Below are positions 8,501 through 44,740 of a stretch of DNA of 64,000 bases, piece after piece. The position numbers and the translations under genes were made by a program. The notes under the pieces were generated by a model. It was given only the letters and a program-made list of their open reading frames with translations. It ran no database searches and was not told the origin of the DNA. The DNA comes from Naegleria gruberi (taxonomy: Eukaryota). Every line of letters begins with the position of its first letter. The first letter of the stretch is position 1. The stretch is from assembly GCA_000004985.1 (NCBI GenBank), contig GG738846.1. One strand, written 5' to 3'.

Positions 8501-11408
8501 GAAGATGATTGAAATTGATTCTTTAGTGTTACAAATTTCTCAATCTCTCTACAGAGCCTATGGTATATTTATTGAAAACCTTACTCCGCATGCTATCAAA
8601 CACTCAAGGCAAGAAATTAAACCTATTCAATACTCAACTGATAAGGTGCTCAGCACTGAAAAGATGAATATTATTAAGGCACTCATTGCCACATTGTACT
8701 ATGAACAATCAGTGAAGGGAGCTCTCAAGAAGGAACACAAGTCACTCAAAGAAATTGAATGCAGCTTGCAAATCAAAGATCAAGCCCTTTCACTCACAAA
8801 TAGTGATGAGATGCAGAAAGTTTTCTCAGAACTTTTCCATAAATTTGACGGAGGTGTTGTTGATTGTACAAAGATCAAGTTCCAATCCGATAAGAAGATT
8901 AATCTCGCCTATAACCTTCCTGTATCTGATTCATCATTTGTGTTGCCACTTACAGAAGCTCAAAAGAAGGACCCACTTTTCCCAATTAAATTGCTACAAC
9001 GTATGATCAAAGGTAGTTCACAAGAATCAAAAGAAAAGAAAAATCAAACACTTGATTATACACAGGTGAGACAAAGTTTGCTTTCAGTGAGGGATGATGA
9101 CCAAATTTTTGGTATTTTCAGAGGACTTCCAGGTGAATTGATCAAGTCCCATGGATTGAAATTCAAAGCAATGTCTTCAGCATTTGATAGAAAGATTTCA
9201 TTTATTCATCCACAATCAGATGCAATGAGAAAACAAAGAATAATCATTTCTAGAGATTCTGTTTCTCACCCTTGGGTTGATTTAACAATACCAGAAAAAA
9301 TTCTCGTCTCTGGAAGTGTATCAATCAAGGATATGACCATGTTACTTGATAAGAATACGACACTTCCTGACATTGAATTTTTTTATGAAATGTCCTTAGT
9401 ATTATTCTTGCCTTTGATTTATCCAAGAAGATTTTGCCTTTTCAAACCAAAGTATGGCGATCAAACATTTTGCCTCATATCAGAACTCTTTGAAAAGATG
9501 AAACCACATGAGAAGACTGAATACGTTCAAAATAAGATTAATCTTGATTTGAATGCTATCTATTTAATTTCTAGTGGTGTTAAAAACTTTGACTTGGTTT
9601 TACAAATTCTGAGAAGTTCCATCCAAAAGAAGATTACTGAATTACTAGCCAATCAACCAGTTGTTGATGTTGGTCTGTTATCCGTTCAAATAACTGATCT
9701 ACTCAATAATGCCAAGAATTACCTTTCTCACAAAGGTTACAATAGAAACATCGCCAAAATTATCTCCGTCTTACCTGCAGAAGATGAAGCTGTGGGAGGA
9801 GATGATGAATCATGTGGTGATCACATTCTTAGAACTAGTAGTTTCCAAAGAATTTCTCAAAGAATATTGAACCTATTGTCTAAACAGTGTCTTCTTTCTC
9901 CTGATGATCCACCTGTCGAAATCAAAAAGAAGGGTAAAACAACTATAGAAATAAGCTGTTCATATGATTATCAATACCTACAAGCCAAATATCTCTTGTT
10001 GCGAGAGATTAACAATGATTATGCTGTTTTTGCACATCCAAAACAAGCATTTGTATGCTTGGAAGTTGAGAAGAATAATTTGAAAGACTTTTTATCATCA
10101 ATGGTATACTTTTCAAGTTATGAGGATAAATCTGGAAAGAATAGAGAATTCTATACAATCAATAGAATTCCAGCAACCAAACGGTTAAATATTAGCATAG
10201 ATGAAGGTAAAGAAGGTAATAATGTAAGAAAATCATTCAATACCAAGATGAAATCTGACAAGCTTACTAATGGAGGATTTCTTCTTCAACCTTTTACACG
10301 CTCGATCTCAGCAGATGCTTTCAGAGAAAAAATTCCAGCCAATAGCAGCAATGATGAATACATGCAAGTGTATGCATACTTTGGGAAACAAGTTTTTTAT
10401 CAAGCAAAGGCAGGAGCAACAAAGATTCACTCTCAACAAAAGGGAGTAACATTTGAGTCACTTAGAAAGATGAAGATTGGTAACGATAATGATGTCAAAA
10501 CTCTATTCTTACACTTTATAGATGCAAGACGTCAGCCTGATTCTTCTCTAATTTCAAACTTCTTACTTTCCAAGAAAGCAGAAAATAAGGAAAGTGTATT
10601 CTCCAACAATCATTACTTTAAGAGAATTCTCGTTGATAAGAATCCAGTTTTGGGAAAGCAAAAGGAGTACATTTCACTCAATATTGTAGACATGGACAAG
10701 AAGGAGAGATTTACAATCTTGCTCTACCTCGACAGAGAACAGACCTACAAGGATGAAAATACTGACTTGGTTAAATGTTCTATGCAAAGCTGGAGAAGAT
10801 CTGATACCAAACTGATTTATTTAGATTTTGTCTCTCCAATACTTGTACAACCAAATGATAATGCTGAAACAATATCGAATAAGAATGAAAATACATTGGA
10901 CGTGAGATTTTCCAAAGTTACTCACTCTAGAACTATCAAGGAAGGGTTTAGAGATTTAATTCCAGCATCCATCCAAGAGTTGGAGTCAAGATTGTGGTAC
11001 AATGAGAGCGACTTTACACTTTATTATTGTTATGAGAAGGATGATTCTATATTATTTGCCAATCTGAATGATTTGAATTTGTCATTTGGCAGTACATTGG
11101 AAAATGATGAGTTGTGCAAATTGAGAGCTGAAACACCACTTGCACGTCTCTCAATCGATTCTATTCACTACGATATCAAGGAAAATTTGCACTTTAACGA
11201 TATTAAGATTCAATTTAAGAATAGAACCGACATTTCACATCCAACCCAAAGAAAATCTTTCACTACCCTTAGGGTTTGTAGCCATCAATTACAAGGAGCT
11301 TTAGGTAAAACTTTTGATAGGTCACAAGTGAAAGAATTCATGCAAATGATTCTCTCTTGGAAGGATTTGATGAATGAAAGTAGTTTGAAAACTCTAGAAG
11401 AAGAATAA
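5586..11408 (+). CDS. Giant DEAH/DExH-box RNA helicase (1940 aa) with a low-complexity N-terminal region of about 330 aa and an extension of about 1000 aa beyond the HA2/OB region
   Basis: Helicase motifs: I GFTGCGKSTQLPQ, Ia TQPRRLAA, II DEIHER, III SAT, V TNIAESSITVPDVVIVID, VI QRKGRAGRVSPG. An HA2-like segment follows at about 8.0-8.3 kb. No known domain is recognised in the last roughly 1000 aa. Confidence 0.8.
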   Translation: MKKMFATGPTSSSTTRESSGQNNDNDTTRVSSTHIIVTPDTTFPTFQLSNTLHSTVPQQTIDKRTSYSALEERKRIRAKRKQFNNYQQQEGQSTEEPTYPPVNKSSSSSYYQNYNDTIQRPIQPPTRSVITEEEMNKDLATFKRQIKKEKREKQRVSKKKENNFNPLESNITIDNNSESNDKASSSVASTSSSNVTASNIYDRKQRNKKEKKPNDFRRVKNYFPPVPEGQQLNVQGPRLIESQPESLSATTNKPSTRIRENKRVNSQAIQNNSIESSVTLPVEKLPKAKTKKENQLLPQIGQIKLNNEQHTNTKPKAMDSLPIHEFSSSIINSIEENQVTVITGFTGCGKSTQLPQIVLKHYIENSNTHRLKKIKIVCTQPRRLAATSLARRVNNEMKSYLDKNGLNELFKGRISGHIIGGEAVLDHNTPIVYATEGCLTQIIMGMHSSSTSSYENFHNEFSHIVLDEIHERKVDTDLLLYFVREIVKVNPKIRIILMSATLSQEKICKYFESYLNMDISSAKNNGQNNGGNGEDDELFVSNIEKKVPAIHIPSGCYPVTENHIEDVITLLYNPVSNPLPEEELLSKQQFAPLLSKPLRASIKPERRILGARLIEYLHVRYPLNQSILVFLPGMMEIEDFADDLTANFIGGASAVDCPYDIHILHSLIAEQEQEESLLPPKEGKRKVILSTNIAESSITVPDVVIVIDFCLCKGKYWNENFNSEVMGLDWVSKDSSKQRKGRAGRVSPGILFRMITRDEYEMLDDSVVPEIQRKPLSSVVLQILMFNGAYVDDPTQFKGLPKNYKTPSEVLQKCLDPPNQSLLEQAYYQLESLGAIVNHQLGNSQTDSNSVVNQYELDEAYLVTSIGKFFSLIPTELNAAYLLLIGYSLNLLPECIIIVSILSRSVPILAFSSLKLLSARAIYSFDNGSESDLIAGFNAYNRFKQLQTLRRDHKITPSQFNSQLAKEMLALKKMIEIDSLVLQISQSLYRAYGIFIENLTPHAIKHSRQEIKPIQYSTDKVLSTEKMNIIKALIATLYYEQSVKGALKKEHKSLKEIECSLQIKDQALSLTNSDEMQKVFSELFHKFDGGVVDCTKIKFQSDKKINLAYNLPVSDSSFVLPLTEAQKKDPLFPIKLLQRMIKGSSQESKEKKNQTLDYTQVRQSLLSVRDDDQIFGIFRGLPGELIKSHGLKFKAMSSAFDRKISFIHPQSDAMRKQRIIISRDSVSHPWVDLTIPEKILVSGSVSIKDMTMLLDKNTTLPDIEFFYEMSLVLFLPLIYPRRFCLFKPKYGDQTFCLISELFEKMKPHEKTEYVQNKINLDLNAIYLISSGVKNFDLVLQILRSSIQKKITELLANQPVVDVGLLSVQITDLLNNAKNYLSHKGYNRNIAKIISVLPAEDEAVGGDDESCGDHILRTSSFQRISQRILNLLSKQCLLSPDDPPVEIKKKGKTTIEISCSYDYQYLQAKYLLLREINNDYAVFAHPKQAFVCLEVEKNNLKDFLSSMVYFSSYEDKSGKNREFYTINRIPATKRLNISIDEGKEGNNVRKSFNTKMKSDKLTNGGFLLQPFTRSISADAFREKIPANSSNDEYMQVYAYFGKQVFYQAKAGATKIHSQQKGVTFESLRKMKIGNDNDVKTLFLHFIDARRQPDSSLISNFLLSKKAENKESVFSNNHYFKRILVDKNPVLGKQKEYISLNIVDMDKKERFTILLYLDREQTYKDENTDLVKCSMQSWRRSDTKLIYLDFVSPILVQPNDNAETISNKNENTLDVRFSKVTHSRTIKEGFRDLIPASIQELESRLWYNESDFTLYYCYEKDDSILFANLNDLNLSFGSTLENDELCKLRAETPLARLSIDSIHYDIKENLHFNDIKIQFKNRTDISHPTQRKSFTTLRVCSHQLQGALGKTFDRSQVKEFMQMILSWKDLMNESSLKTLEEE

Positions 11409-11524: not shown

Positions 11525-13372
11525 ATGTTCACACTCTCCCAATGTTTAAACTGTCATGATTTTTATCATCCGACCAATTTGTACAGTCTTTGCATATTGA
11601 AAAAGGGACTTTCAAACAATTCTATTCCTTCCACAACAAGTAATCAACAACAATCACAACAACAGGAAGCAAACAAGGAACATTCCTTCATATTTACAGC
11701 AACGAGTAATAATATCTATGTCTTGTTAGATTCCGATGATCATCAGCAACAATTATCAACCTCTCCTACTTCAATAATTAATATATTAAATAATTCTAGC
11801 AATAATACTACAATTAACAGTAATATTGCAAATAATAATAATAAGGATGTATTTATTCAACGTGAATTTCCCATTCAAGAAATTCCAATTTATAATATTA
11901 GTAGAATTCCAGCAGACTCTCAGATAATTTCCATCTCAGCCTTTAATTCTAATTATGATAAGAGTAAGCTAGTGTTGGGAGTTACATTCACACAACCAAT
12001 TAATACTAGTATTAATACATCATTGGATAATAGTGAACAAAAGAGAAAGTATATTGATGATGATGAAAATAGAGATGAGGATCAATATTCGTCATCGTAT
12101 GATTCTGGAGGTGGAGGTGATAGTACAGATGAGGATTCGGAAATGAATACTATTCATTCAAAAAAGAAAAAGAAGAAGGTTAATACAAGTGGAGGTGGCT
12201 CTTCATTTGTGTCACATTCAAAGATGAATGAAAATGAAGAGAATGAACAACAGAATCAACAGAATCAACAATTTAATAATTATTTCTACATTTACTTGTT
12301 GGATATTGATGAAATTGTGAATAATCATAATAATATCAAGTACAATTCATTATTGTACAGTAGTAATATTAATACACAAAATCAAACCAAGCACAAGTGT
12401 ATTCAAACATTCTCTTTAGGATATGTTCCATTGAAGTTGAGCACTCAAACAACAACTCTATATCCCAATTTACAAAAATACTCAATATTTGTCATTTGTG
12501 GAAGTGATAAGAATTTTCATTGTTTTTCTGATATTATTCTCACTCCTCAAAATAATTCAATCCTTCTCAAATTATTTGACCTTCCTCTCTACACTAGGAA
12601 TAATGAATATGCCAGTAATATTAGACATTATTACAATAGATTCAATGAAAATTTATTTATTGAATATGATTTTATTATACCAGGAGGTGTACCAGGTTCT
12701 GTCATTGATTTTGATTCTAATAATAACTTATTGGTCATGGGATGTCAAAATGGTTTTGTGAAAATTTGTAAAGGTGCCAATCTTGAACTACAGTTCATGT
12801 TGAATAGTCCAATTAGTTCTGTAAAAATTTTAAACTATACACCTACAGAGTTGAGTTTGTTGGTGGGTGAATCTGTTGGTAGGGTTGTCCTCTACAATGT
12901 TCCCCTCACTTCCTTTGTCAAGGATAATAATAATCAAATGGTTCCCTCCACTCCCTCCATAATCAATAATACCAATGAAATAATGACCAATATCCAATCT
13001 ACTGTTATTTACAGTGACGAGTTTGGAGACTCGATTACATGTCTCTATGCCCAACCTTACAGGTGTGGCATTACGGATATTTATATTGGTACCTACAATA
13101 GAAAACTAATTGTCTACCAATTTGAGAGTAATACATGCATTTACAAATGTACCTATCATTTTGAATATCCAATACAATACATTGATTCATTGGACATTAA
13201 TAATGATGGAGTGAAGGAAATTATCATTTGCACCATGTTTGAAATTCAAATATTACAACCTGACCTTACCTCTATTGCCAATTATATCAAGGAAAAGTTA
13301 AAACTCAATAATGCAACATTGCCAACAGAGACAACTAACCACCACCAATCCATAACCACTACCTTAGAATAA
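11525..13372 (+). CDS. Kaptin-like protein (KPTN, a KICSTOR complex component), a tentative homolog
   Basis: From memory of human KPTN: [22 protein letters not shown] resembles [38 protein letters not shown] resembles [25 protein letters not shown] resembles DGPISRVIV, and [16 protein letters not shown] resembles DVDLDGRPEVLVATYG. An N/Q-rich insert is present. Confidence 0.5.
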   Translation: [615 protein letters not shown]

Positions 13373-13736: not shown

Positions 13737-16004
13737 ATGGCTACGAGTACGGGTAGATTCATTGCCGTCGTTTTAATGATGACCCTGATGATGGTTAGCA
13801 TTATGAATGGTTCGGAAATTCCTTCATCATACTTTAAAAATGTTCAAGGACCTCCAAGTGAATTTGCTAATTTTGCTGATCCAACACCAGCCGATGCTTC
13901 ATTGGTATCAGATTCTTTCATGATGGAAATTGCTCTCCAACAACAAGGAGACAAGGCTTCATGGCAAGGAATGATTCCAGTTGACTCTTTGGATCATGTT
14001 GCTATTTCTATTGTTGGTCCTGATGCTAAATACATGAATTTGAGAGTTGTTAATATTGATGATGTCGTTGTTAACGAATTACAAGAAGCTAACATTGAAA
14101 ATTATAATCAAGCTATTAAAGCTAAAAATCACGTTGTAAATACATGGATGGGTTATGATAAGCATAGCTCTGTTCCAGCTAAAGTTTTCAACTTTAATAA
14201 CAATGATCAAGTTAAGACTGGAGATTGGATTATTGAAGTTAGTTTGGATTCTCAAGCTCCACAAGCTGTTCAACAAAAGTATCAATCTAAGAAGGATACA
14301 TCAAAGGCTGACTTGATGTTGATCATTTATAATAGTAGCCCATTGACTGCTCATACTCAATCTATCAATATGAATGCTGTTCTTGGTGAAAAGATTGGTT
14401 TCATTACTCGTGTTACTGACAAGACTGAAGCTGAAAAGAGAGAAAGAATTGGTGTCAAGTATGTTCCAAAGGCTATTCCAGCCGAAAGTTTCGAACATAT
14501 TGAAGCTGAAATTGATGTTCAATATCCTGATGGAAAGGAAGACATTGTTCCAATGCACTCTACTTCTTTTGCTGGTATTCAAGCTTTGGAACACCAAGGT
14601 GCTTTCAGTGGTGAATTTGTTGCTACTGAAAAGGGTATTTTCCACTTTAGAGTTGTTGTTAAGGGTGTTGTTGGTGCAGAAATGAGAAAGACTCTCTTCA
14701 AATCTGCCAAGTTTATTGATCCACAATCACCAAAGATTACCTTTATGCGTACCACTCAACACATTATTGCTATTGTTGATAAGGAAGTTCAATTGGTCAA
14801 GGATGGTGCTCTCGCTTCCTTTACTCAAGCTGATGAAATGATGACTGTCAATTTGCAAGCTAAAAAGTTGTTGCCATCTGCTGAACCAAAGAAGTATAAG
14901 GCCTTTGCTGAAGTTTGGGCTGTTTCCAAGACTGATGCTTCCAAGCTTGTCCCAGTTTGTTACACTCTTGGTATGACTATTTCTTCTGATTCTCAAGAAC
15001 TCGGTAAGGATTATGTCAGTATTCCATTGCAATTCTCCATGAAGTGGTTGTCAAAGGCTAACGCTATGCTTCCATTGACATTGAAGAATATCAAGATTCA
15101 AGATGTTGACACCTCATCTGCTATTAGTGAATTGGATGAAGTCTCTTCAATTGAAACTCACAGTCTCTTGATTGATACTGAAACCAAGAAGGTTAATCAC
15201 AGACTCACTGAAAAGTCCATTGTTCACTCATATATTAACGATCTCTTGATGGATAAGTATGCTTTTGAACAAGTTACTGAAACCATGTTGATGGGTCCAA
15301 GACCAAAGCAACTCACTCTCAAGGCTAGGGCTAGAAATAGCAACCATAAGGTTATCCTTGTTCACGGTTATTGCTCTGCTGGTGATCCATTCACTGCCTC
15401 TCACTTCCAAAATGCCATTGTTTTCAGCGATCCAAACCAATCTAGAAGCAATGACAAGTTTGCTCAAATGATTTGGGAAGTTGCTAAGGATTTGGATTCA
15501 TTCGCTGTTGTTGCTCACAGTCAAGGTGGTATGGCAGGTGTTCACTTGTACACTTTCTATTGGTCAACTGCTGATAATATTCCAACCAATGCTAACATTA
15601 GACTTTTGCAATCTGTTGGTACTCCTTATGGTGGTTGTTCTGCTGCTGGTTCCATTGCTAACCTTGGTAAGGTCTTTGGTGCTGGATGTGGTTCAAATAC
15701 TGATTTGAGTCCTGATGGTGCTTCAAAGTGGCTCAAGACTATTCCAGAAGCCTCTCAAAAGAAGGTCTATTATTACACTACTCAAAATAAGAAGGATGGT
15801 TCCTCATGTCACTCCATGATGGACTGGATTTTGTACAAGCCAAACGATGGTACTTCTGAAATTAGATATACTTCTGCTTTGACTTCTGCTAACAATATGG
15901 GTTTGAAGTACGGATGGTGTCACACTACTGACATGAATTATCCACCTCAATGTACTGATCCAGATCGTAATGCTGAACTCAACAAGTATGCTAACGGTTT
16001 TTAA
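13737..16004 (+). CDS. Secreted protein with a C-terminal class-2 lipase-like alpha/beta-hydrolase domain and a large N-terminal domain of about 500 aa
   Basis: A cleavable hydrophobic N-terminus (MATSTGRFIAVVLMMTLMMVSIMNG) is present. HKVILVHGYCSAG...VVAHSQGGMAG...SVGTPYGG resembles the Bacillus LipA (Lipase_2) nucleophile elbow AHSMGG. Codon usage differs strongly from neighbouring genes (GGT/GCT/TCT/AAG/TTC rich), consistent with high expression. Confidence 0.65.
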   Translation: MATSTGRFIAVVLMMTLMMVSIMNGSEIPSSYFKNVQGPPSEFANFADPTPADASLVSDSFMMEIALQQQGDKASWQGMIPVDSLDHVAISIVGPDAKYMNLRVVNIDDVVVNELQEANIENYNQAIKAKNHVVNTWMGYDKHSSVPAKVFNFNNNDQVKTGDWIIEVSLDSQAPQAVQQKYQSKKDTSKADLMLIIYNSSPLTAHTQSINMNAVLGEKIGFITRVTDKTEAEKRERIGVKYVPKAIPAESFEHIEAEIDVQYPDGKEDIVPMHSTSFAGIQALEHQGAFSGEFVATEKGIFHFRVVVKGVVGAEMRKTLFKSAKFIDPQSPKITFMRTTQHIIAIVDKEVQLVKDGALASFTQADEMMTVNLQAKKLLPSAEPKKYKAFAEVWAVSKTDASKLVPVCYTLGMTISSDSQELGKDYVSIPLQFSMKWLSKANAMLPLTLKNIKIQDVDTSSAISELDEVSSIETHSLLIDTETKKVNHRLTEKSIVHSYINDLLMDKYAFEQVTETMLMGPRPKQLTLKARARNSNHKVILVHGYCSAGDPFTASHFQNAIVFSDPNQSRSNDKFAQMIWEVAKDLDSFAVVAHSQGGMAGVHLYTFYWSTADNIPTNANIRLLQSVGTPYGGCSAAGSIANLGKVFGAGCGSNTDLSPDGASKWLKTIPEASQKKVYYYTTQNKKDGSSCHSMMDWILYKPNDGTSEIRYTSALTSANNMGLKYGWCHTTDMNYPPQCTDPDRNAELNKYANGF

Positions 16005-19325: not shown

Positions 19326-20615
19326 ATGTCAATACTCGAAGAACAAAACACACTCCCATTCTCTGAACAAGAATCACCAGAAAATTATCTTTATTTTCTT
19401 ACCACAGTTAATCCAACAGATTTTATTAATACGTCGGAGAGAGGAAGTAAAATTGTAAAATTATTTTCGGAACACTTTTTACCTTTGCCCTTCTCATCGA
19501 ATGAGGATGGATCTGACTTGACAGAGGAAACAACAGTAATTTTACTTGTTCCATACTTTATTGCATTGGGAACTTTGCAAATTAGACAGGAAAATACTCA
19601 GCCATTCAATATGGAATTGCATCAAAAAAATAGAAAGATTCAATTGAAACAAGCAAATGAATATTTTTGTAAATTTTTAAATTTGGCTTTACAATATGAT
19701 CAGGTTAATGATGATTACCTCTCTTGGGTATTGCCTCATACAATGAATAGGGATGATGATGAGGAGGAACAAGTTGCAAAATCTACCAAGAAACAGGATA
19801 AGGCATTCGAACAATTGATGAATGACAGAAGTCAAATGGTATTGCGAATGAAGACAAAGAATGCCTTAGCACAGGAGTTATTTTCAAACGTTGAGGAAAT
19901 GTCTGAATTGGAAATTTCTAGATTATTGTCGAGTGTTTCTCTTGGAGAGGATTCAAGCAAGAAGGTTTCAGAACAAGTGAAAAAGAAAATGTTGAACATT
20001 AGAGATTATATTAACTTTTGCGTTCTAGACACTTTGGAGAATTTAGCTTCCAACAGTAGAGAAGAAGGAATGCTCAATGCAGTTTCTGCTCGTCCTTCCA
20101 TGCCTCAACATCCTTCCCAATCGTATCAACAACAAAGTGGTTCAACATCAGGACAACCAATTTCCCATCTTAAGGCTACATCTATTAATGATGTTCTTAA
20201 TAACCGTGGGGTTCTCTCACAAATGGGCTATAATATGATCTTACTTCCAAATAATAATGGTGGCAATACTGGAAACAAGTCAACCAGTAGTGGCAATTCA
20301 TTACAAAAGAAGGCACTCGCCAATCAGTCCATTCAATCCAATATTATCAATAATAGAACAACAAGAGAGGATATCAAAAGTAGAGTGTTTGGATCCTATG
20401 TTCCTGGACCAACAGTATCTCTGGAAGAGTTTGCCCGACAGGAATGTATCGACATGCACCAAAGAGAAGAAAAAGACAAGCAATTCAAACAAGAACAGAC
20501 TCAAAAGAAGAAGGATGACGAAGAGGAAGAAGATGAAGAGGAATTGAAAAAGAAGAGAGTGTGGGAAGATTGGAAAGATGATCATGTTAAAGGTTCTGGT
20601 AATATGAGAGATTAA
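19326..20615 (+). CDS. tap42: TAP42/alpha4 (IGBP1)-like PP2A-regulatory protein
   Basis: The C-terminus EEEDEEELKKKRVWEDWKDDHVKGSGNMRD* matches the human alpha4 tail (...[21 protein letters not shown]). LLVPYFIALGTLQ resembles LLVPAFQGALTMKQ. Confidence 0.65.
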   Translation: MSILEEQNTLPFSEQESPENYLYFLTTVNPTDFINTSERGSKIVKLFSEHFLPLPFSSNEDGSDLTEETTVILLVPYFIALGTLQIRQENTQPFNMELHQKNRKIQLKQANEYFCKFLNLALQYDQVNDDYLSWVLPHTMNRDDDEEEQVAKSTKKQDKAFEQLMNDRSQMVLRMKTKNALAQELFSNVEEMSELEISRLLSSVSLGEDSSKKVSEQVKKKMLNIRDYINFCVLDTLENLASNSREEGMLNAVSARPSMPQHPSQSYQQQSGSTSGQPISHLKATSINDVLNNRGVLSQMGYNMILLPNNNGGNTGNKSTSSGNSLQKKALANQSIQSNIINNRTTREDIKSRVFGSYVPGPTVSLEEFARQECIDMHQREEKDKQFKQEQTQKKKDDEEEEDEEELKKKRVWEDWKDDHVKGSGNMRD

Positions 20616-21430
20616 AATACATCATAATAATTTTCACTCTTGACCACAATCAATGAAGGTTTGAGACATGTTCTCACAAATTCTACAACTTGTTTCACAG
20701 CTTCCACCATTCTATTTCCATTAATATCAATAAACACTTTCAATTCACATGATGGGTTACCATATTTATATCGTCTCCAAACTTTGGAAATGCTTTTTTG
20801 TTCCATTTCATCCAAACAATTGGACCACCAAAATTCAATCTCTGGATATTTCTTTTTAGTTTCCTCAATATAATCCTTTGAAATATCCAAACACAATAAT
20901 TTTGCACAATTTTCAAATAATATTTTAGAGGTATCACCACGAGCAGAACCAATCTCAATCACAAAGTCTCCCGATTGCATTATTGGATCAACACCTCCTT
21001 TCTGTTGCTGTACAAAATCATACGATTTGAAAACTTGTGTTTTTGCAAGCATTCGGAAATCTCTTGTATCTCTACAAACAATCACCTTTTCTTGATGCAA
21101 TAAACTCATGATGGGAATCATCTTGCTTGGAGAGACATGATAACAAGACTGATCTTTACAATATTGAATTTTATATTTTCCAACAAATTCACTCCTCTCA
21201 CTTTCTACCACCTTGTTTACAACTCTGGCAATGGAGTATACTTTTTTCCCTTGAATTATCCATACTAGATTATATTTTGAAAATAGATATTCCTCATTGG
21301 AAGTAATTAATTGGTGATCAAAATTATTATATTCCACTTTTCCGAGATTATATAAAATTAATCCATCTTTTACTCCTTTCATTCCATCGTCATTGTTATT
21401 TTGATGAGTAATGGAAGTTTGTTCCACCAT
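20612..21430 (-). CDS. FtsJ/RrmJ-like SAM-dependent 2'-O-ribose methyltransferase domain protein with an N-terminal Tudor/PWWP-like region of about 110 aa. It appears to lack the C-terminal catalytic-Glu segment.
   Basis: RDFRMLAKTQVFKSYDF...GDFVIEIGSARGDTS...LLCLDIS...FIDINGN...SLIVVKSENYYDVF* aligns with E. coli RrmJ RSRAWFKL...VVDLGAAPGGWSQ...IIACDLLP...VMSDMAPN...SFVVKVFQGEGFDE. The K-D-K residues are present, but the ORF stops where RrmJ continues for about 35 aa including the E. The stop overlaps the TAP42 stop. Confidence 0.5.
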   Translation of the reverse strand: MVEQTSITHQNNNDDGMKGVKDGLILYNLGKVEYNNFDHQLITSNEEYLFSKYNLVWIIQGKKVYSIARVVNKVVESERSEFVGKYKIQYCKDQSCYHVSPSKMIPIMSLLHQEKVIVCRDTRDFRMLAKTQVFKSYDFVQQQKGGVDPIMQSGDFVIEIGSARGDTSKILFENCAKLLCLDISKDYIEETKKKYPEIEFWWSNCLDEMEQKSISKVWRRYKYGNPSCELKVFIDINGNRMVEAVKQVVEFVRTCLKPSLIVVKSENYYDVF

Positions 21431-22822: not shown

Positions 22823-25561
22823 ATGGGAATCAATAAGGTTACACCAATAGAGAATTTTCCAACTCCCTCCTATAACAACCACACGTTGGATCCCAACGCT
22901 TGCGAATTGCAGGAAATATCATCAAATGGATCTTTTAATTATTTACAATCATCAATAGGGAAATTGAGTGCTAGAAGTTTTGATGTGAGGGCCGTTACCA
23001 AAACTTCCTTCTCCAACACTATTCATGTCTCAAGCAAACGGATGGGGAGACCAGATACACCTCCCCCGAACGACCTCAAAAGTATAATTCCCTGGTTCAG
23101 ATATAATTGCTTAACACTGGCTAACTTGGTGATTGTGTTTGTGCTCATATTTATATTATTGTTCTGTATTGCTTTTGCCTTGACCATTGTGCTCTTCACA
23201 GGTCATATTTCATCAGAATTGAGTTCGGTAACAATTGGTGTCATAAAATCCAAGGTGGATCTCTTTCTGAAGGAACGATTAGGTGTCGTAGAGACTGTTG
23301 CCTTTACTGCTCAACAAGATGTACGAATGCTTATCAATCAGTTTGCTTATTCCCCATCACCATTCTCCTCTTCTGCTCTCTCTTCCCATATCAGAGAATA
23401 CCTCTCCTCACGCTTAATTTACCACAACATTACCTCGATAGGGTTATATTTTGAAAATTGCTTGGGCAATGCAAACACTTCTTCCATGTACAAATGCCAA
23501 CTTGATCAATCAACAGATTTTGTAAATAGCTATATTTGGATGAATCAAACAATGAATTCAGATTTGAACACTTACCAAACAAGTGAACATCGAAATACAT
23601 CCATCACCATTGATACCTCCCAACCTCTTCAAACCATAGTCTCGAGTTCCACTAAAATTCCATTAAACTTTGAAGATTCAACTCTCCTCCACTCTGATTC
23701 CGCCTACCGTACCTTTTCCAATGCATTCTATTTAGATATGAAAGACAAACTTGTCAACCTGCCAGCCTATCAAGCTCTACAAGGTGTATGGTCACCATCC
23801 TCTAAAATAGATCCATCCAAATTTAATCTAGTCTTTACTGTGCCTATTTTTGATGCCAATAATTTGCAACTCTATGGAATAACCCAGGTGGAATATCCCT
23901 TACAAGCTTTGGCTCATTTAATGAGGACATTTACTTATCAATCAAAGGGTTACATTGTTCTTTCAGATTTGAACACTGAAAAAGTGGTTATTAGTTCTCT
24001 TCCAGATTCTTACACTCTTAAATCGATCTATGATATTAAGGAACTGAACATTGGTAAACTAATGACGTATCTCAAACAGAATTCCTTCCTCGATTTCAAT
24101 TCTGAAATCTCAGTCAGCGGAGTTGAATTTGAGGGGCTGGTCTACAATATGCTCAATACAAAATTCTCCTACAATAACGTTAACTTAGGGATGACCATTG
24201 TATTGGTCGATGATTCGGTTCAAGAATTCCACAATGATACCCTGTACTTGGCTATTTGTATTTCAGTTGGTTATGTAGTAATTGGACTTGTAATGGCTAT
24301 TATTTTAGGGTTCTTAATTTCGAAACCTCTCAAAGCATTGAGTGTTGAGTTTGGTCACATTAAGCACATGGACCTTGAGAAGGTTAGACAACACTTTTCA
24401 ATGTTTGGTGAATTCCAAGTTCTCTTCCAAAAGTTGGATGAAATGGTTGTTTGGTTGAATGATGTTCGTTCTTTCATTCCTAACAGTATCTTGATGGAAA
24501 TTAGAGGTGATTCAATTGACAATGATGTTACAGAGACTGAAATTGTTACGACAAACATCAATGTAAAAGACAAATTAGCAGAGACCAAAGGAAGAGCAAG
24601 TAGTGAAATTCCAGAAAACTCAATCGCTAACATTGCAAAGGGGTTCAAGACCTATCAAGAATACTCAGTTTTGTATATGCGTATCATGGACTTGGAATCA
24701 TTAACAGTTACCGAGAGAGCATTCTACTTTGAAAAGGTTCTTGAAATTTCATCAAAGATTGCAAAGAAAAACAATGGTGATATCCAATTATTGGATATTA
24801 GCAGAATACGTATTTACTATTGTGATCCAAATAATGAAAATGCCTCCAAAAAGGTGATTACAATGGCTTTGAAAATTTTGAGTGTTGTTGCTGATTTTAG
24901 CTCAACAATGGAGCAACAAGGAAAGTTGCCGTGCAACTTGATAATTTCAATCTCTACGCAGAAGGCTCTCGTTGGTAATATTGGTACTAGGGAGCATAGA
25001 ATCCACACCATTGTTAGTAGATCCATTTCATTGTGTGAACAAATGATGCTCATCGCCAAATCATTGAATATTTCACTTATTGTAGATTCTAACTCTTGTG
25101 CTGCAAACTTGGGAAACTATGTTTATAGGCCAGTTGACAGAATTTCAGTGGAAGACGATTTGATGGTTATTTATGAAATCTTTAGAGAAAATCAAGTAAA
25201 TGACCAAGAATGGATGTACGAACTGGATCAAAAGGAAAAGAATAGTAGCTACAATGAATATCAAAGTGCATTCCAAACCTTATTGAAGGGAGGACCCAAA
25301 ATTGAAGAGTACCGTGAAGCCATCTTGAAAGTTAGACGATTCAAAGGATCTAATGGTTTTGATCGAGATCTTACTGCTGACCATCTAATCTTTATGCTGG
25401 AAAGAGTTTCTGAAAGTTGTGAGAGAGGCCTTTCTGAAAAGTTGAGCCCACAATTCACTTCATCCTATCAATATTGTTCCAGAATATATACAGAATGGGA
25501 AAATAAGTTTGGTATGGATGTGCTGAAAATTAGACCAGTTGAAATTGTCAATAATAAATAA
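22823..25561 (+). CDS. Two-TM receptor-like protein with an extracytoplasmic sensor domain, a HAMP-like linker and a class III nucleotidyl cyclase homology domain, possibly catalytically degenerate
   Basis: TM1 is LTLANLVIVFVLIFILLFCIAFALTIVLF, followed by an extracellular region of about 370 aa, then TM2 YLAICISVGYVVIGLVMAIILGFLI. After it, YSVLYMRIMDLESLT...ALVGNIGTREHRIHTIVSRSISLCEQM follows the class III cyclase pattern (F.DI.GFT ... G.V.G.IG ... VN.ASR), but the positions of the transition-state Asn and Arg appear substituted. Confidence 0.5.
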   Translation: MGINKVTPIENFPTPSYNNHTLDPNACELQEISSNGSFNYLQSSIGKLSARSFDVRAVTKTSFSNTIHVSSKRMGRPDTPPPNDLKSIIPWFRYNCLTLANLVIVFVLIFILLFCIAFALTIVLFTGHISSELSSVTIGVIKSKVDLFLKERLGVVETVAFTAQQDVRMLINQFAYSPSPFSSSALSSHIREYLSSRLIYHNITSIGLYFENCLGNANTSSMYKCQLDQSTDFVNSYIWMNQTMNSDLNTYQTSEHRNTSITIDTSQPLQTIVSSSTKIPLNFEDSTLLHSDSAYRTFSNAFYLDMKDKLVNLPAYQALQGVWSPSSKIDPSKFNLVFTVPIFDANNLQLYGITQVEYPLQALAHLMRTFTYQSKGYIVLSDLNTEKVVISSLPDSYTLKSIYDIKELNIGKLMTYLKQNSFLDFNSEISVSGVEFEGLVYNMLNTKFSYNNVNLGMTIVLVDDSVQEFHNDTLYLAICISVGYVVIGLVMAIILGFLISKPLKALSVEFGHIKHMDLEKVRQHFSMFGEFQVLFQKLDEMVVWLNDVRSFIPNSILMEIRGDSIDNDVTETEIVTTNINVKDKLAETKGRASSEIPENSIANIAKGFKTYQEYSVLYMRIMDLESLTVTERAFYFEKVLEISSKIAKKNNGDIQLLDISRIRIYYCDPNNENASKKVITMALKILSVVADFSSTMEQQGKLPCNLIISISTQKALVGNIGTREHRIHTIVSRSISLCEQMMLIAKSLNISLIVDSNSCAANLGNYVYRPVDRISVEDDLMVIYEIFRENQVNDQEWMYELDQKEKNSSYNEYQSAFQTLLKGGPKIEEYREAILKVRRFKGSNGFDRDLTADHLIFMLERVSESCERGLSEKLSPQFTSSYQYCSRIYTEWENKFGMDVLKIRPVEIVNNK

Positions 25562-25605: not shown

Positions 25606-28600
25606 TTATTGGAAAGCAACTTCAACCTTATCCTCATTTACAATTCTCTTTCTTTGATAAAAGAGCATGTAAGCATTTGAAGTTTTCAATTCCTTCTCTG
25701 TAAGTGGCGAAACAGACGAATCGTTGAAACAATACCATCTACTATCTTCACAATTTTTAGCATATGAATAATAGTGACCACCATAGAGACCTCCTGTATG
25801 ACAACTGATAGCAAATAAATCATAGAGCATGTGGTCTTCTGGCTTTCTAACCATATAATCACTCAAGTCAAGATTATAGATTGGATAATCAACAAGTGCA
25901 TTCACTTTCTCCCTACCAAATCTATTAAAACCAAATCTCTTGAGATGGATAATTAAAATTTCAGGGCTAGACCAAACACAACACTGTTTGAATGCACAAA
26001 CATGTTTCTTACAATCAGGGCAATACCATTGGTCTCTTTCTCCGAGTTGTTCCATTTCACTATTCAATTTCAAACAATCGTCCAGACTAATGTTTTGAGA
26101 TCGAGGGGCCTCGTTAGTAATATTTTGTTCTGCAACATGAACGGTTACTGTTTCTTTAGTTTTCAACATTTTAACATCAAACCAATCAACAGAGAAATAA
26201 TAATTATCCTCCTGTTGTAAGTATTCCTTAACCATATCATCTCTATCATCATAAAGAATTGGAATGCCACATGTATCATTTACAACCTCAACAGACTTGT
26301 CAATAACTGTAAATTTAAATGGAATATTGGCTGGATCAAAGGCAGGGAAAAGTGTCTGACGTAAAATTTCAATTCTTTCAGCAAGAGGATATTCTTGTCC
26401 ATCCTCTTTGGTCGGTTGTAAATTAGTTTCAGGGTCTTCTGGTGATTTCTTGGCTACTCTTTGTAAATGAGACCAAAGAATATCATAAAAGTCCTTTGTG
26501 GAAATTTCCTTCTTTACGAATAATACAAATGGAATACCCACACTCTTGAATTTTCCCTCTTCGGAAGGGTATCTCTGTCTTATTGGAATAATTAAATACT
26601 TCTCAGGAGAGTAATCATCTGGAACATCAGCACATAATACTTTTGGAGTTGATTTGGCGTTAGGATCAATAATCTTAACACTATCATTAAAAGAGAATTG
26701 TCTTCCAATAGAAAATCCAGCCATGGCAAAGAATTGGAGTTTTTGTGGGTCTCTTCCACTAACTTTAGCAAATTGAGTGGCAAGTACTTGAACAGTTGAT
26801 TGCTTTGGTAACTCGACAGTATATTTAGTTGCTCTTCCTCCATTTTCTGTATTCAATAAAATTACATCCAATCGGTGAGGCATTGATTTACCAACAGGAA
26901 CTGAAAGATACTATATAAGTGTAAATAATTATTCAATTTAAAAAAATCCTTACCATAAATGGGTCAAACTTGACTGAAATCTTGTTACAAACTTTGAATA
27001 CATATTAGCAATAAAATACAAATAACAAACTTACCATTACAAATAAGAGTAGACTTGAGTTGTCCTTGAAATAAATCTACAATTACACTATCATTTCTCT
27101 TCAAATGTTGTTCCCAAGATTCTTTTGCAATCACTTCATCAGGTCGTCCGTCATAATCCTTTGCTTCAATATATGGTTTGTTGATTACCTTGTTTAAATC
27201 TTCATGTAAACCATCCAATAAATATGATGTCAATTCTTGAGAGTCGTGTTGATTATAGCCAGAGAATTGAGGGGCAAATTGACTGATGGCATACTTAAAG
27301 TTGGTTGGAGTAAAGTTGGCACCACCACTCCACATTTCTTTAATGAGAGAGGCAAAGTTATTAGCAAGTTTACCCTTAGTTCCCAATGGATTGCTTGTAT
27401 TGATATGCTTTGCATAGAGTCCACTTATAAAGTAATTTTTAAGAGGTACAGTGTTAGAGAGACATTGAATAGCACTGTTCATAAAGCACGTATTACCCAA
27501 ATTTCTCAATCCACACAAACCTCTCTTTTTACTCTTACCTGAGGCAGGAGTTGCAATACCAAATGTACTAAATGAATAATCCTTGATACTATCCCAAATT
27601 TCACTTAATTTACTTCTCTTTTCTTCGTCATCTTCATCTTCCTCTTCATCACTAGCATCGTTTGATTCTTGCTTTTTTTTGAAAATTTCAAGTGGAAATT
27701 CTCCACCATTTTGTTTAAACTCAAAAACGATACTTTGTCCATCAAAAATTAGAGCTTTTTCAAGAGTTTGACTCTCACTGTCAGCAATGGCACTGGCGCT
27801 TGAATCTTCCTTTCGCCACATTCTGCAGTTTTTCAAAGTTGATGTTTTCTGAATTATTGTACTTTCAAAAAGAACACAACCAAGCATTTTCAAATCCTTG
27901 GTAGCCAATTTTTTGCTTACTTGAATTGTTGTCTTGGTATCTTTCATGATTGTTCCCTTTTCATTGACCATATAAATATTGAGAATATATGGATGAATTT
28001 CTACACGTCTCATTTGATTATTTTCCAAGCCATCCACAATAACTCTTCTGACGATTTTTTGACTATTATTAATTTCTCCATACCAATGGGCTAATAAATC
28101 ATAACTCTGTATAATTATTAGTAGTAATTATTATTATAATTAGTTTGACAATAGTATTATAATAAAACTAACCTCCTCGGAAACAAACTCAAAATCTTGT
28201 CTTGTAATATCTCTTTTAAGAACTGTTGTGAATAGAACAGAACCATCTCTTGTAAAATTGGTAAATTCTGGTACTAATGGATGTTTTAAACTAAAACCAT
28301 TATAAATGAGAACTTCTTGAATAATGTCACTATTGTCAATTGGACCAGGAGCAGGAGATTTTTTATGTGATGTTTCCTTGTGTTTCTTCTTTCCAACATT
28401 TTCATTTGGATAATTTACATATTCTTTCCAAATCTTGAACCATGATGAAGAAATAATTACAAATGTGCTTCCTGCTTTAAAAGGTGACTTGTTTTCAATT
28501 GATTCTATTTTTTCCCTTTGTTTTTTAGCATCGGGTTTTGTGTAACTCGTCTTTTTACTCTTACTCTTGGCAGTAATGATCAGAGAAATGCTTCCTTTTT

Positions 28601-35381: not shown

Positions 35382-38300
35382 ATGTTTGAAGGAATTGCTT
35401 CGAGCATTATTGTTAAACTCCTCGGAGATTATATTGAAAATTTAGATAGTAAATCTCTTAAAATTGCTGTATGGAGCGGAAGTGTTAATCTAACCAATCT
35501 AACGTTGAAAGCTTCGGCTTTGGATACATTTGATTTACCAATTTCTGTCGTACAAGGATGTGTTGGTAGTATTGATGCATCGATTCCTTGGCAATCCCTT
35601 TCTAGCAGTCCTGTGATTGCCAAAGTGAGTGATGTCTTTCTGGTTGTTCAACCAAAAAAGTGTGATAAGGTATGTATTATTTGCAATTAGGATTCTAATT
35701 ACTTGTTCGATTTATATAAATATATATTTAATAATGTAATTATTGAAAATAATTTGGAAAATATATTTGGATTTACAAATTTAACGTTTGTTTGGATTAA
35801 TTTCTTCTATCATCAACAAACTGAAAATGTTAATTTTCCAAATTTATTTTACTTCTTCTTTGGATTAATACCCTATAATCTATTATTATCAACTATGCAA
35901 TATTATTATTTGTTAATATTAATCTTACTCACTTGATAGTATGATGAACAATCGGAGAAGGCTAGAGCATTATTGGCCAAACAAAGAAGTCTTCAAAACC
36001 ATGAATTGTGGAAGGAACAACAAGAGGCTGTGGATGACATCAAACAAGATAAAAAGACAGACGATAAACAAGGGGATACTTTTGTTTCTAGAATGACCGA
36101 AACTATATTGAATAATCTTCAAGTGGAAATTTCCAATGTACACATTCGTTATGAGGATGGTTCCAATCCAAAGAATCGTATAGTTTTTGGTATTACCATG
36201 GAAAAACTGTCCTTGAAGAGTTGTAATGAAAATTGGGAGGAAGTTTTTATCAAGACTGTCCAAGCAGCTTTCTACAAGAAAATGTTACTTCAAAATTTAT
36301 CGTTCTATATGAACAATAATGAAATTGAACTCTTTTCAAAATCTGGAATGGATACTAAGAAATTCTCTCTCCATATGAAAAAGATTATCACTGAAAACAA
36401 GTTCTACAGAAGATTTATTGTAAGTCCAATTAATGGAGAAGCCAAACTTGTCATGCAAAAGGAAGGAAATATCGATATGAGCAAACCTACAATGGTGGCC
36501 AATTTGGAATTAGACAATGTAAATTTATGCCTCGATGACAGACAATATAAGAATCTACTCTCAACTCTTGAATATATGAGTAACTACTCACGATTTGAAA
36601 GATTTAGACATTTGAGACCAAAGACAGATTACAAATCGGAAGAAAAGGGATTATGGTGGGAATATTTAATCAATTCTGCAAAGGATATTGTAGAGAAACA
36701 TCACTTTACTTGGCAACAAATTGAGGAACGTAAAAAGCAAAGAAAGGAATATATTGAACTCTTCAAGAGAAGTAAGGAATATCCATGGCAAAAAAAGCTT
36801 TCTGATTCGGAGAAAAAAACTCTCCATTCACTGGAAGACAAGATTGATTTTGAGGATATTATCTTTTACAGGGAGCTGGCCTATGAAGAATTAAAAATTG
36901 AAAAGCAAAAGAATAAGGCATTCCTTACAAAGAACGAAAAATCCTCTGGATGGTTTGGTGGTTGGTGGGGAAGTAAACCCTCAACTGCTACTCAGGAATC
37001 GTCTTCTGGAGAAGAATCACCAACTGCTTTTGAATTTACAGAAGAGCAACGTGAAGAGTTACACAAGACAATTGGTTACAATGCCAAGGAAAAGGCTCAA
37101 TCCATAGAGCTACCAGCAGATTATGTATCCTATCAAATTAATTTTTACCTAAAGCAAGGAGAACTTAAACTTAGAAATGCCAGAGTGAAGAGTAGTGATC
37201 CAGATTCAGCCATTGTTAAAGGTGCCTTTAATAACTTTAGAACCGAGGTTGGTGTTAGAGCTCAGGGATCTGTCATTGTACGAGTGACATTGGATGATTT
37301 TGAAATTACAGATCATTTCTCTGATGTGACACAATTCAAAAAGATTCTCTCAAGAAGAAAGCAAGTTGGCCATTTGGCAGAAATTATTGTGGAAAATAAG
37401 CCTCTAGATGGTGAATCAGATTTGAAGGTGCAAATATTGCTTCAACAAGTTGACATTGCACTCAATGTTCCTCTAGCTCAAAAAATTCTCTCCTTCTTTA
37501 TCATTCCATCAAATTTGGACTTTTCTGCACTTCAAAACCTTGCTAAAAAGCAATTTGAAAGTTTACAACAACAAGCTCTCACACAATTGAAGGTTGCTTT
37601 GGAATCTAAAATGTTAATTGCTTTGGATGTGTTAATTTTGGCTCCAACATTTATTATTCCTATCGACTATAAGGATGAAAACTCTAAAATAGTATTACTC
37701 GACTTGGGTAAATTGAAATTCAAGAGTGATATTGATAAGAAAGAAAGAGAAAGGAGAATTAAGAATGAAACTGTAGAAGAAAAAGATTTTTATGATAGAT
37801 TCGACCTTGAACTTTCAAATATCCAAGCAGTCATTACAGATGTTCCAAGCTATAACAAACAAACAACGACAAATTCATTCCAACTTATCGAAAAGGTTAA
37901 TATATTTACCAAGTTGGGTATTCTCATTACAAACGATACCAACTATGCTGGAACTAAAATTGAAGGAACCATTCCTTCTATTAAGGTTAACCTTTCTCCT
38001 CTAGCTATGAATACCATTGTTAATGTAGCCAACAACTTCCTTGTTCTAGTGGATAATCCAACTGGTAACAGTAAGGAAGATGTTGAAATCAAGGGTGCAC
38101 TCAAGATCAAATCAGACCTTTTGACAAATGGTGAATTTAAACCATATTGGACTGAAGTGACAGAAAATGGTAAAATCATGCTCTACACCACAGAAAATGA
38201 TATGAAACCTTCAGGATGTATTTATATCGATGATAGATCCATTGAATATCAATTATCTGACAAAAATCCAGATTTAACAGAGAACCAACTGGCTATTGTA

Positions 38301-44300: not shown

Positions 44301-44740
44301 GAACTCTGGCTGACAATGGTGCTGTTTTAAGATATTCATTAACAGATGCTTATGCCAAGTATCTTACTGTCTCTATTGATGATGGTGCCTATGCAAAGAC
44401 CAACAAAGCTGTCTATTACATGCCAGATTCAACAAAGGCTGCTGTTTACTTGATTACTGACAAGTTTATTTTGAAGGTGGACCCAGTTGAAAAGAAGGTA
44501 AAATGGAGAATGCAACTTTCCAAGATTATGAAGGTTGAATTGGTTTCAGAACCTACCGATGCCATTAAAGTGGTAAGCAATGAAAGAGAAAAATCAATTT
44601 TTGGAACTTCAGGAGCAAACATTACGAGATTATTAGATTCATTTGATAAGGAATATTTACACAGATTTAAGAACAAGCTTAATATTGAGTTATCGAGAGT
44701 TTTCAAAGAACAGCAAGAGTTTGACGTTGTAGATTATTAA
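35382..44740 (+). CDS. vps13: VPS13-family lipid-transfer protein of about 3030 aa. Exon 1 is 35382..35669 and exon 2 starts at 35940. The reading frame breaks between 42863 and 42917 and continues in frame 2 to 44740.
   Basis: The N-terminal chorein domain is MFEGIASSIIVKLLGDYIENLDSKSLKIAVWSGSVNLTNL..., and VHIRYED is conserved. A C-terminal ATG2_C/VPS13_C-type block FFYEPASAITKSPEEF...IKGAQEEGAVGFIKGVGKGIIGIPLKPVGGIIDMA matches human VPS13A FFYEPYQGAIQGPEEF...IKGAQKGGAAGFFKGVGKGLVG...GGIIDMA. Confidence 0.8.
35670..35939 (+). other. Intron (270 nt, GTATGT...GATAG) in VPS13, the longest intron in the window
   Basis: The donor follows ...KKCDK directly. The intron is extremely AT-rich. The acceptor precedes YDEQSEKARALLAKQRS..., which aligns with VPS13A. 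Confidence 0.7.
42863..42917 (+). other. Frame discontinuity in VPS13: the frame-0 stop TGA is at 42915..42917, while frame 2 opens from 42863
   Basis: Inserting one T in the TT at 42914/42915 gives a continuous ...AFSLASSLKRKRRSTIGENTKP... Confidence 0.6.

Follow-up and report, generated by a model that had tools for sequence, protein, structure and literature searches.

In a 64,000-nt stretch of Naegleria gruberi DNA (GenBank assembly GCA_000004985.1, contig GG738846.1; hereafter the window), the gene at 22823..25561 on the plus strand is an uninterrupted open reading frame (ORF) of 912 aa, stop codon included in the coordinates. The encoded protein has the layout of a membrane receptor with an intracellular class III cyclase-homology domain (CHD), in which all six canonical catalytic positions are substituted. 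It is one divergent member of a large, equally defective family found in Naegleria, Willaertia and related eukaryote-like metagenome sequences. With a probability of roughly 0.6, we read it as a pseudo-cyclase receptor that senses a ligand and signals by non-catalytic means, and which would descend from bacterial-type dCache_1-HAMP class III adenylyl cyclases. A preliminary description of this DNA had proposed a pseudo-cyclase receptor, and the proposal is borne out more strongly than it was put: six positions are lost, not five, and the loss is common to the family. That a large unannotated family shares the loss of the catalytic residues was unexpected.

A cyclase-homology domain without its catalytic residues

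Residues ~606-790 (24638..25192, plus strand) are a class III CHD of the PF00211 superfamily by homology and fold. Scans with the receptor protein against Pfam and NCBIfam gave no match even at E ≤ 10. A phmmer comparison with Pseudomonas aeruginosa CyaB reached E 0.0064 with the full-length sequence and E 7e-4 when the CHD was used alone, a marginal signal for a single protein. Because the single-protein Pfam and NCBIfam scans were empty, we took domain assignments from the family. When 1.84 billion representatives were searched exhaustively with HMMER, 440 relatives came up at E ≤ 1e-3, of which 28 passed E ≤ 1e-30; their identity to the receptor protein is about 25%, and they fall into its length class.

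In the PDB, the profile of this family matches the C2 domain of soluble adenylyl cyclase (sAC), CyaB, Cya2, RhGC, OaPAC and AC9, all cyclases, at E 1e-10, and sAC C2 is the best-scoring of these matches. By hhalign the family profile is collinear with 18 canonical dCache_1-HAMP-CHD proteins over 661 columns (Prob 100, E 4.6e-55), all the way from TM1 to the helical hairpin at the C terminus. We also aligned the receptor protein with 60 homologs and matched each of the 61 sequences to Pfam families; 21 of them match PF00211. An AlphaFold2 (AF2) monomer model, built on a 45-sequence family alignment, gives the CHD a predicted local distance difference test score (pLDDT) above 90. Foldseek searches with the modelled domain return TM-scores of 0.77-0.80 at 2.4-3.0 Å, and the beta-alpha-beta-beta-alpha-beta fold is present. 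Its structural neighbours include cUMP and cCMP synthases, and CHD-like proteins that are non-catalytic are known from solved structures, such as 7sua and 6yii ('Class III adenylyl cyclase-like ATP-binding protein'). The CHD announced by the preliminary description is therefore real. Of the profiles that it suggested for a check (PF00211, CHASE and HAMP), none matches this protein directly; a degenerate CHD, dCache_1 and HAMP are recognised through the family and its bacterial relatives.

The register of the catalytic positions was set by MAFFT L-INS-i with five canonical references, by BLASTP with a canonical relative and by hhalign, and all three agree. Six of six canonical positions are substituted, all codons being on the plus strand. 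The first metal-binding Asp (Asp1) is replaced by R620 (codon 24680-24682) in each of the three alignments. The substrate Lys is aligned with L656 (24788-24790), the second metal-binding Asp (Asp2) with S660 (24800-24802), the specificity Asp/Asn with I727 (25001-25003), the transition-state Asn with S736 (25028-25030) and the transition-state Arg with Q740 (25040-25042). The motifs around them, FxDIxGFT, GTxDKxxGD, MAFWGAP and GDxVNxASRLExxNK, are substituted as well.

Substitution of Asp2, Asn and Arg had been foreseen, but the first metal Asp had been taken as present, with MDLESLT read as FxDIxGFT. We reject this register, since three methods put Asp1 on R620. The Asp of MDLESLT, D623 (codon 24689-24691), falls on the Gly/Asn of GFT, three residues downstream of the Asp1 position; for example, BLASTP sets LYMRIMDL of the receptor against LFSDIADF of the canonical relative. 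In canonical cyclases 35 residues separate Asp1 from the Gly that precedes the KxxGD strand; counted by hand on the MAFFT alignment, family members without gaps in this stretch reproduce that spacing in the R620 register only. The intact D, D, N and R residues of an ordinary cyclase, the outcome that would have spoken for an active enzyme, are not seen in any of the three alignments.

A competent class III cyclase has both metal Asp residues, a substrate-specifying pair of Lys (or Glu) and Asp/Thr/Asn (or Cys), and the transition-state Asn/Arg, and the receptor has none of these. We infer from the substitutions that it would make neither cyclic AMP (cAMP) nor cyclic GMP (cGMP) by the class III mechanism. 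The domain might instead be an active nucleotidyl cyclase or transferase that uses non-canonical metal residues, e.g. D623, E625 and D658, which are acidic and lie near the former metal site. In an alignment of the CHD of the receptor protein with those of its 44 closest relatives, Asp2 is kept in 20 of the 45 sequences and D, E or N stands there in 35, and the cUMP and cCMP synthases among the structural neighbours make other products. Nonetheless, all six canonical positions are replaced, and the candidate substitute residues are not conserved even in the closest relative, where D623 is replaced by Asn. Across the family the FxDIxGFT phosphate loop, GTxDKxxGD and GDxVNxASRLE are lost, and the commonest residues in the Asp1 position are Arg and Lys. 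We consider catalysis of this kind improbable, and place it after the first two of the alternatives discussed below.

Loss of the catalytic residues across the family

In the same 45-sequence alignment, neither Asp1 nor the substrate Lys is kept in a single sequence. Asp1 has given way most often to Arg (12 sequences), Lys (8) or Thr (7), and Ile, Val or Leu occupies the Lys position in 37 sequences. The transition-state residues are hardly better preserved (Asn in 5/45, Arg in 1/45). Representatives ranked 2-73 in the search all hold at most two of five catalytic residues, and the first canonical D-K-D-N-N-R sequence, which is bacterial, appears at rank 74. Among the best 149 representatives, 134 could be assessed and 15 were too fragmentary; 110 are degenerate, 21 canonical and 3 intermediate. 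Judged by these alignments, loss of the catalytic residues is a trait of the family and not a lesion of this one protein.

The names of the relatives come from exact look-ups of 30 representatives. Among the degenerate members with a name, at least 5 paralog clusters belong to N. gruberi, and others come from N. lovaniensis and from Willaertia magna. Other degenerate members are JGI, ENA or Logan metagenome proteins, some of them with N-terminal ankyrin repeats. Two JGI metagenome proteins, P0018 and P0072 (1153 and 1169 aa), are N-terminally longer and annotated as 'ankyrin repeat protein/class 3 adenylate cyclase', which suggests a second architectural subgroup of pseudo-cyclases in organisms that are probably eukaryotic. 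The nearest intact relatives among those checked are bacterial or metagenomic, e.g. from a Planctomycetales metagenome-assembled genome (MAG).

While the catalytic residues are gone, the family retains residues of the fold (G608, G709, G713, G718, N719, G721, G732, A738 and L741) and has conserved CHD residues of its own (F605, K606, Q655, K684, R726, D755, P770 and R773). The residues that are nearly invariant in the family are all kept in this protein: P502, E530, L545, F551, P553, G608, G718, G721, D755 and P770. The open 2.7-kb ORF in a genome of 35% GC, the retained glycines, the new conserved residues, the strong conservation of HAMP and of the motif after it, the (D/E)EWxYEL motif of the degenerate proteins and the confident AF2 model point to a gene that is still under selection.

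These data bear on whether the gene is a functionless, decaying relic, i.e. a young pseudogene that has not yet gained stop codons. Such a view would fit the lack of a close ortholog (the best match is 24-26% identical), the deviations from the family consensus at some conserved positions and the truncated, unnamed deposited annotation. It is hard to reconcile with 912 open codons in an AT-rich genome, with the full set of near-invariant family residues and with the confidence of AF2 in all folded domains. Moreover, the catalytic loss is ancient, being common to at least 110 diverged relatives with conserved motifs of their own. A relic is thus an improbable explanation, second among the alternatives.

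The alternative that ranks first is that the pseudo-CHD heterodimerises with competent class III cyclases of Naegleria and acts as a ligand-controlled inhibitor or allosteric partner. Class III active sites span the dimer interface: one subunit contributes both Asp residues, while Lys, Asn and Arg are supplied by its partner. Because the active sites are shared in this way, a dead partner would disable both of them. The CHD retains its fold, the glycines of the dimer arm (GNxG, aa 718-721) are still in place, and the family profile scores best on sAC C2, a natural half of a pseudo-heterodimer that binds no metal. Potential partners are numerous, as a pangenome study counts at least 81 cyclases in Naegleria. 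However, the family has a sensor and a HAMP of its own and at least 110 diverged representative clusters, which looks more like autonomous receptors than like accessory subunits. A heterodimer could moreover only inhibit, since the family is without half-site complementarity. We had considered that paralogs with only D-D and paralogs with only K-N-R might form active heterodimers, and rejected this: among the 134 assessable proteins, one sequence has D-D only, and no K-N-R-only counterpart was found. Overall we regard a modulator of other cyclases as unlikely and prefer an autonomous pseudo-cyclase receptor.

Sensor, membrane topology and coupling

The layout of the protein was built from hydropathy, the AF2 model and profile comparisons. 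From N to C terminus it consists of a first transmembrane segment (TM1), an extracellular dCache_1 domain, a second transmembrane segment (TM2), HAMP, a disordered linker, the CHD and, at the C terminus, three bundled helices followed by a hairpin. The model has a mean pLDDT of 75, and 80-96 in the folded domains. All features given below lie on the plus strand.

The deposited gene model covers only part of this layout. ORF residues 244-912 are 100% identical to a deposited N. gruberi 'predicted protein' of 669 aa, which begins at the internal M244 (nt 23552) and is thus N-terminally truncated. The missing part, 22823-23551 (aa 1-243), holds TM1, the helix of the stalk and the beginning of the Cache domain. 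We conclude that aa 1-243 are real protein, supported by homologs and the AF2 model, because aa 98-125 are strongly hydrophobic, P0002 of N. lovaniensis (902 aa), the closest relative, is collinear with the ORF from aa 117, and the hhalign alignment with bacterial relatives begins at aa 95, TM1 included. Accordingly, the deposited gene model should be extended to take in TM1 and the first Cache module. The start codon is uncertain and may be M1 or M74. The cytosolic tail before TM1 (aa 1-97, 22823..23113) is predicted to be disordered, with AF2 pLDDT below 50 for aa 1-90, and the relatives do not align to it.

Two transmembrane segments had been described, and both are found. TM1 (aa ~98-125, 23114..23197) has Kyte-Doolittle window means above 1.6 with a peak of 3.5, is helical in the AF2 model, where it runs on into the long dCache stalk helix, and aligns to bacterial TM1. 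TM2 (aa ~473-498, 24239..24316) is supported by hydropathy, the AF2 model and hhalign. The charges around both segments agree with an N-in/C-in topology. The receptor is best explained as a two-pass plasma-membrane protein with both ends in the cytosol.

Between the two segments lies the extracellular sensor (aa 126-472, 23198..24238). An extracytoplasmic domain of roughly 370 aa had been expected here; it is present and, at ~347 aa, slightly shorter. It contains a disordered insertion at aa 261-299. Profile homology and a modelled double-PDC fold with a long stalk helix identify this domain as dCache_1 (PF02743) and not as CHASE (PF03924), the type to which the preliminary description had assigned it. 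In the 61-sequence alignment, dCache_1 is matched by 13 sequences and MCP-like_PDC_1 by 4; 27 families are matched in all, and CHASE is not one of the 25 that are listed, so that it matches at most one of the 61 sequences. The family profile also matches the dCache chemoreceptor structures 6mni and 6iop, and hhalign shows collinearity with bacterial proteins that reach 63 bits on dCache_1.

The sensor assignment bears on orthology with ACG (AcgA) of Dictyostelium, the protein to which the gene had been compared. The gross layout is alike, both being receptor-type proteins with two transmembrane segments, an extracellular sensor and a cytosolic CHD. However, ACG combines CHASE with an active cyclase and is reported to lack conservation beyond the Dictyostelia (PMC4399386), whereas here a dCache_1 sensor is joined to a dead CHD and the nearest intact relatives are of bacterial type. 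AcgA is therefore not a suitable frame of comparison. Orthology is refuted by the sensor domain, and we hold it to be the least credible of the alternatives.

The motif by which dCache_1 domains bind amino acids comprises Y121, R126, W128, Y144 and D173 in PctA numbering (Gumerov et al. 2022, PMC8915833), and the PctA substitution D173N abolishes amino-acid binding (PMC8915833). In this protein the motif is broken: where Y, R, W, Y, Y and D are expected, it has Y295, N300, F302, Y303, S327 and E357. The amoeba family has a new, conserved pattern in its sensor pocket (Y, Q/T, Y/F, Y/W, Y, N), in which R126 has become Q/T, W128 has become Y/F and D173 has become N (N in 30 of the 45 aligned sequences). 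Since the motif is altered and D173N abolishes binding in PctA, the ligand is probably not a free amino acid. By contrast, the 18 bacterial relatives keep the motif in 10-18 sequences, depending on position, and for this reason are predicted to be amino-acid-responsive adenylyl cyclases.

The HAMP-like linker noted earlier after TM2 is upheld by comparison with bacterial relatives. The receptor protein itself gives no direct Pfam HAMP match. HAMP (ISKPLKALSVEF...) occupies aa ~494/499-550 (24317..24472), and its membership of PF00672 follows from the alignment of aa 494-545 to the Pfam-HAMP stretch of P0147 (aa 353-404) and to that of P0095, which scores 28.8 bits at a cut-off of 25. The AF2 model has two helices here, at aa 464-514 and 529-549, and P502, S526, E530 and L545 are nearly invariant in the family; P502 and E530 correspond to the Pro in helix 1 and the Glu at the start of helix 2 that are conserved in HAMP domains. 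HAMP is followed by the motif F551-x-P553-(E/N)-S-(V/I) (aa 551-562, 24473..24508), which is equivalent to the K-Y-V-P-x-x-L-V before the CHD of canonical relatives and aligns to its KYVP. In the family P553 is invariant and F551 nearly so; HAMP and the F-x-P motif are the most conserved segments of the family. Between this motif and the CHD lies a family-specific disordered linker (aa 563-605, 24509..24637; pLDDT below 50), which faces a gap in the hhalign alignment. Family members have 29-92 aa (median 64) between P553 and G608, compared to 19-20 aa in the 11 canonical relatives inspected.

The C-terminal domain (aa 791-912, 25193..25558) starts with the family signature (Q/D)EWMYEL. It continues with a three-helix bundle (aa ~794-867) and ends in a low-confidence beta-hairpin (aa ~885-909); the domain as a whole has an AF2 pLDDT of 80.7. 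The preliminary description had given about 140 aa of unassigned function. The domain is closer to 120 aa, and its helices 1-2 share homology with the TPR-like tail found in the bacterial relatives (BLASTP, hhalign); the bundle as a whole does remain unmatched, as Foldseek finds no PDB match with E < 1. Its top match, an MIT three-helix domain (TM-score 0.64, E 1.5), was not assigned. A (D/E)EWxYEL motif directly after the CHD is present in 70 of the 110 degenerate proteins, compared to none of the 21 canonical ones. P0018 carries DDWVNEI where DEWxYEL is expected. In the 18 bacterial relatives, P0074, P0095, P0107, P0116 and P0147 among them, the C-terminal TPR-like hairpin ends in a conserved P-x-D.

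We propose the following mechanism for the pseudo-cyclase receptor. A small ligand would be bound outside the cell by the double-Cache domain, whose pocket has been remodelled away from the alpha-amino-acid motif. The signal would then pass the membrane via TM2 into the well-conserved HAMP. Inside the cell, the CHD keeps its fold and, with the metal Asp pair, the substrate Lys/Asp and the transition-state Asn/Arg gone, would synthesise neither cAMP nor cGMP. Its output would be non-catalytic: the pseudo-CHD, presumably dimeric, and the (D/E)EWxYEL bundle might serve as a conformational platform or a scaffold to which a partner protein or a nucleotide binds.

Several points weigh against this proposal. 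A disordered linker of 29-92 aa would speak against the rigid helical coupling of HAMP and CHD in canonical HAMP-cyclases. The loss of canonical residues may not strictly rule out non-canonical chemistry. The scaffold role that we propose falls to a C-terminal bundle without a recognisable structural relative in Foldseek. Finally, this member could be an outlier that is drifting, since its closest relative anywhere is only 24-26% identical and it leaves the family consensus at S660 (D, E or N in the family), at S327 and E357 in the sensor pocket, and at IAKGFK (LFKxGL in the family).

The gene lies in AT-rich DNA (GC content 0.29-0.38 along the window, mostly 0.31-0.36), and we found no second copy or tandem paralog of it elsewhere in the 64 kb. 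A word-indexed homolog search with the receptor protein returned only the protein itself, and one with the family alignment returned only distant canonical cyclases. Three antisense ORFs of 65-97 aa inside the receptor gene (24355-24648, 24817-25059 and 25261-25458, minus strand) are most likely chance ORFs, without signs of coding.

The neighbours in the window encode VPS13, an intron-split USP-type ubiquitin hydrolase, an Aladin-like WD40 protein and a zf-MYND protein. The hydrolase looks like one USP/UCH gene composed of two ORFs, 25606-26883 and 26985-28037 (minus strand), with an intron of ~100 bp; the downstream ORF scores E 3.8e-33 on UCH and the upstream ORF has a Cys-box-like sequence. 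This gene is convergent with the receptor gene and lies 45 bp from its stop codon. VPS13 (VPS13_N, _M, _VAB and _C) spreads over two overlapping ORFs in different frames, 35973-42917 and 42869-44740 (plus strand), and the frame change at 42.87-42.92 kb implies a short intron or a frameshift. An ORF of 1940 aa at 5586-11408 (plus strand) matches Pfam only in a DEAD/Helicase_C core at aa ~329-746, the remaining ~1200 aa being without a match. Four further ORFs, 272-755 aa long, match no Pfam family at E ≤ 1e-5 and may be lineage-specific Naegleria genes: 11525-13372 and 13737-16004 (plus strand), and 20612-21430 and 60718-62514 (minus strand).

Relation to known systems

The locus suggests a family of at least 110 representative clusters (50% identity) of dCache-HAMP receptors that have a dead cyclase domain throughout and are hidden from Pfam thresholds. 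If our reading holds, the counts of cyclases and Cache sensors in Naegleria-type amoebae need revising, and CHDs join kinases and GGDEF/EAL domains as folds that were recruited to non-catalytic receptor signalling in a eukaryote. The family would also offer a candidate set of environmental or prey-sensing receptors for free-living amoebae and their pathogenic relatives.

More tentatively, the Heterolobosea (Naegleria, Willaertia) might possess a large unrecognised class of chemoreceptors, in which a dCache-HAMP unit of bacterial origin is combined with a cyclase domain turned into a non-catalytic module and with the (D/E)EWxYEL bundle, for cAMP-independent output or nucleotide sensing. Such chemoreceptors may detect small molecules, e.g. 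metabolites of bacterial prey. If true, the class would be to CHDs what pseudokinase receptors are to kinases and what degenerate receptors with GGDEF/EAL domains are to that fold. Within the material searched, our literature searches found no account of Naegleria pseudo-cyclases or degenerate CHDs.

The closest known systems are dCache_1-HAMP class III adenylyl cyclases of bacterial type with a TPR-like tail, for example P0095 (Planctomycetales MAG, MGZ0173581.1), P0074 ('bacterium', MBT5954377.1) and the metagenomic P0107, P0116 and P0147. They share with the Naegleria protein the order TM, dCache_1, TM, HAMP, (K/S)(Y/F)xP, CHD and helical tail. While they keep D-K-D-(D/N)-N-R and score ~90 bits on PF00211, in the Naegleria protein neither the six catalytic residues nor the amino-acid motif remain, and it has gained the disordered linker, (D/E)EWxYEL and a longer C-terminal bundle.

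Cache-containing cyclases have been described before, such as Rv2435c of Mycobacterium tuberculosis (PMC4822843), and Upadhyay et al. (2016) reported a single Cache-containing 'bacterial-type adenylate cyclase' in Naegleria (PMC4822843). Their protein comes from the same organism group and the same Cache-plus-cyclase class; unlike it, the family described here is catalytically degenerate and a much larger, hidden set. That Pfam-level survey missed the family because it lies below Pfam thresholds, with 0 matches for the present protein and 16-17 bits in P0004 and P0010.

Non-catalytic cyclase folds are known in other settings. The C2 domains of sAC (ADCY10) and of mammalian transmembrane adenylyl cyclases still have Lys, Asn and Arg and pair with a partner that binds the metals, whereas the present family is without both halves. 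The non-catalytic 6yii, from P. aeruginosa, belongs to a soluble transcriptional regulator and not to a dCache-HAMP receptor; neither 6yii nor 7sua represents a eukaryotic receptor family. In degenerate GGDEF/EAL receptors such as LapD, a periplasmic or extracellular sensor and a HAMP domain are coupled to dead nucleotide-cyclase-type domains that serve as conformational or binding output. The Naegleria receptor may be built on a comparable principle, from which LapD differs in having the GGDEF/EAL fold instead of a CHD, in being bacterial and in its known ligand, cyclic di-GMP.

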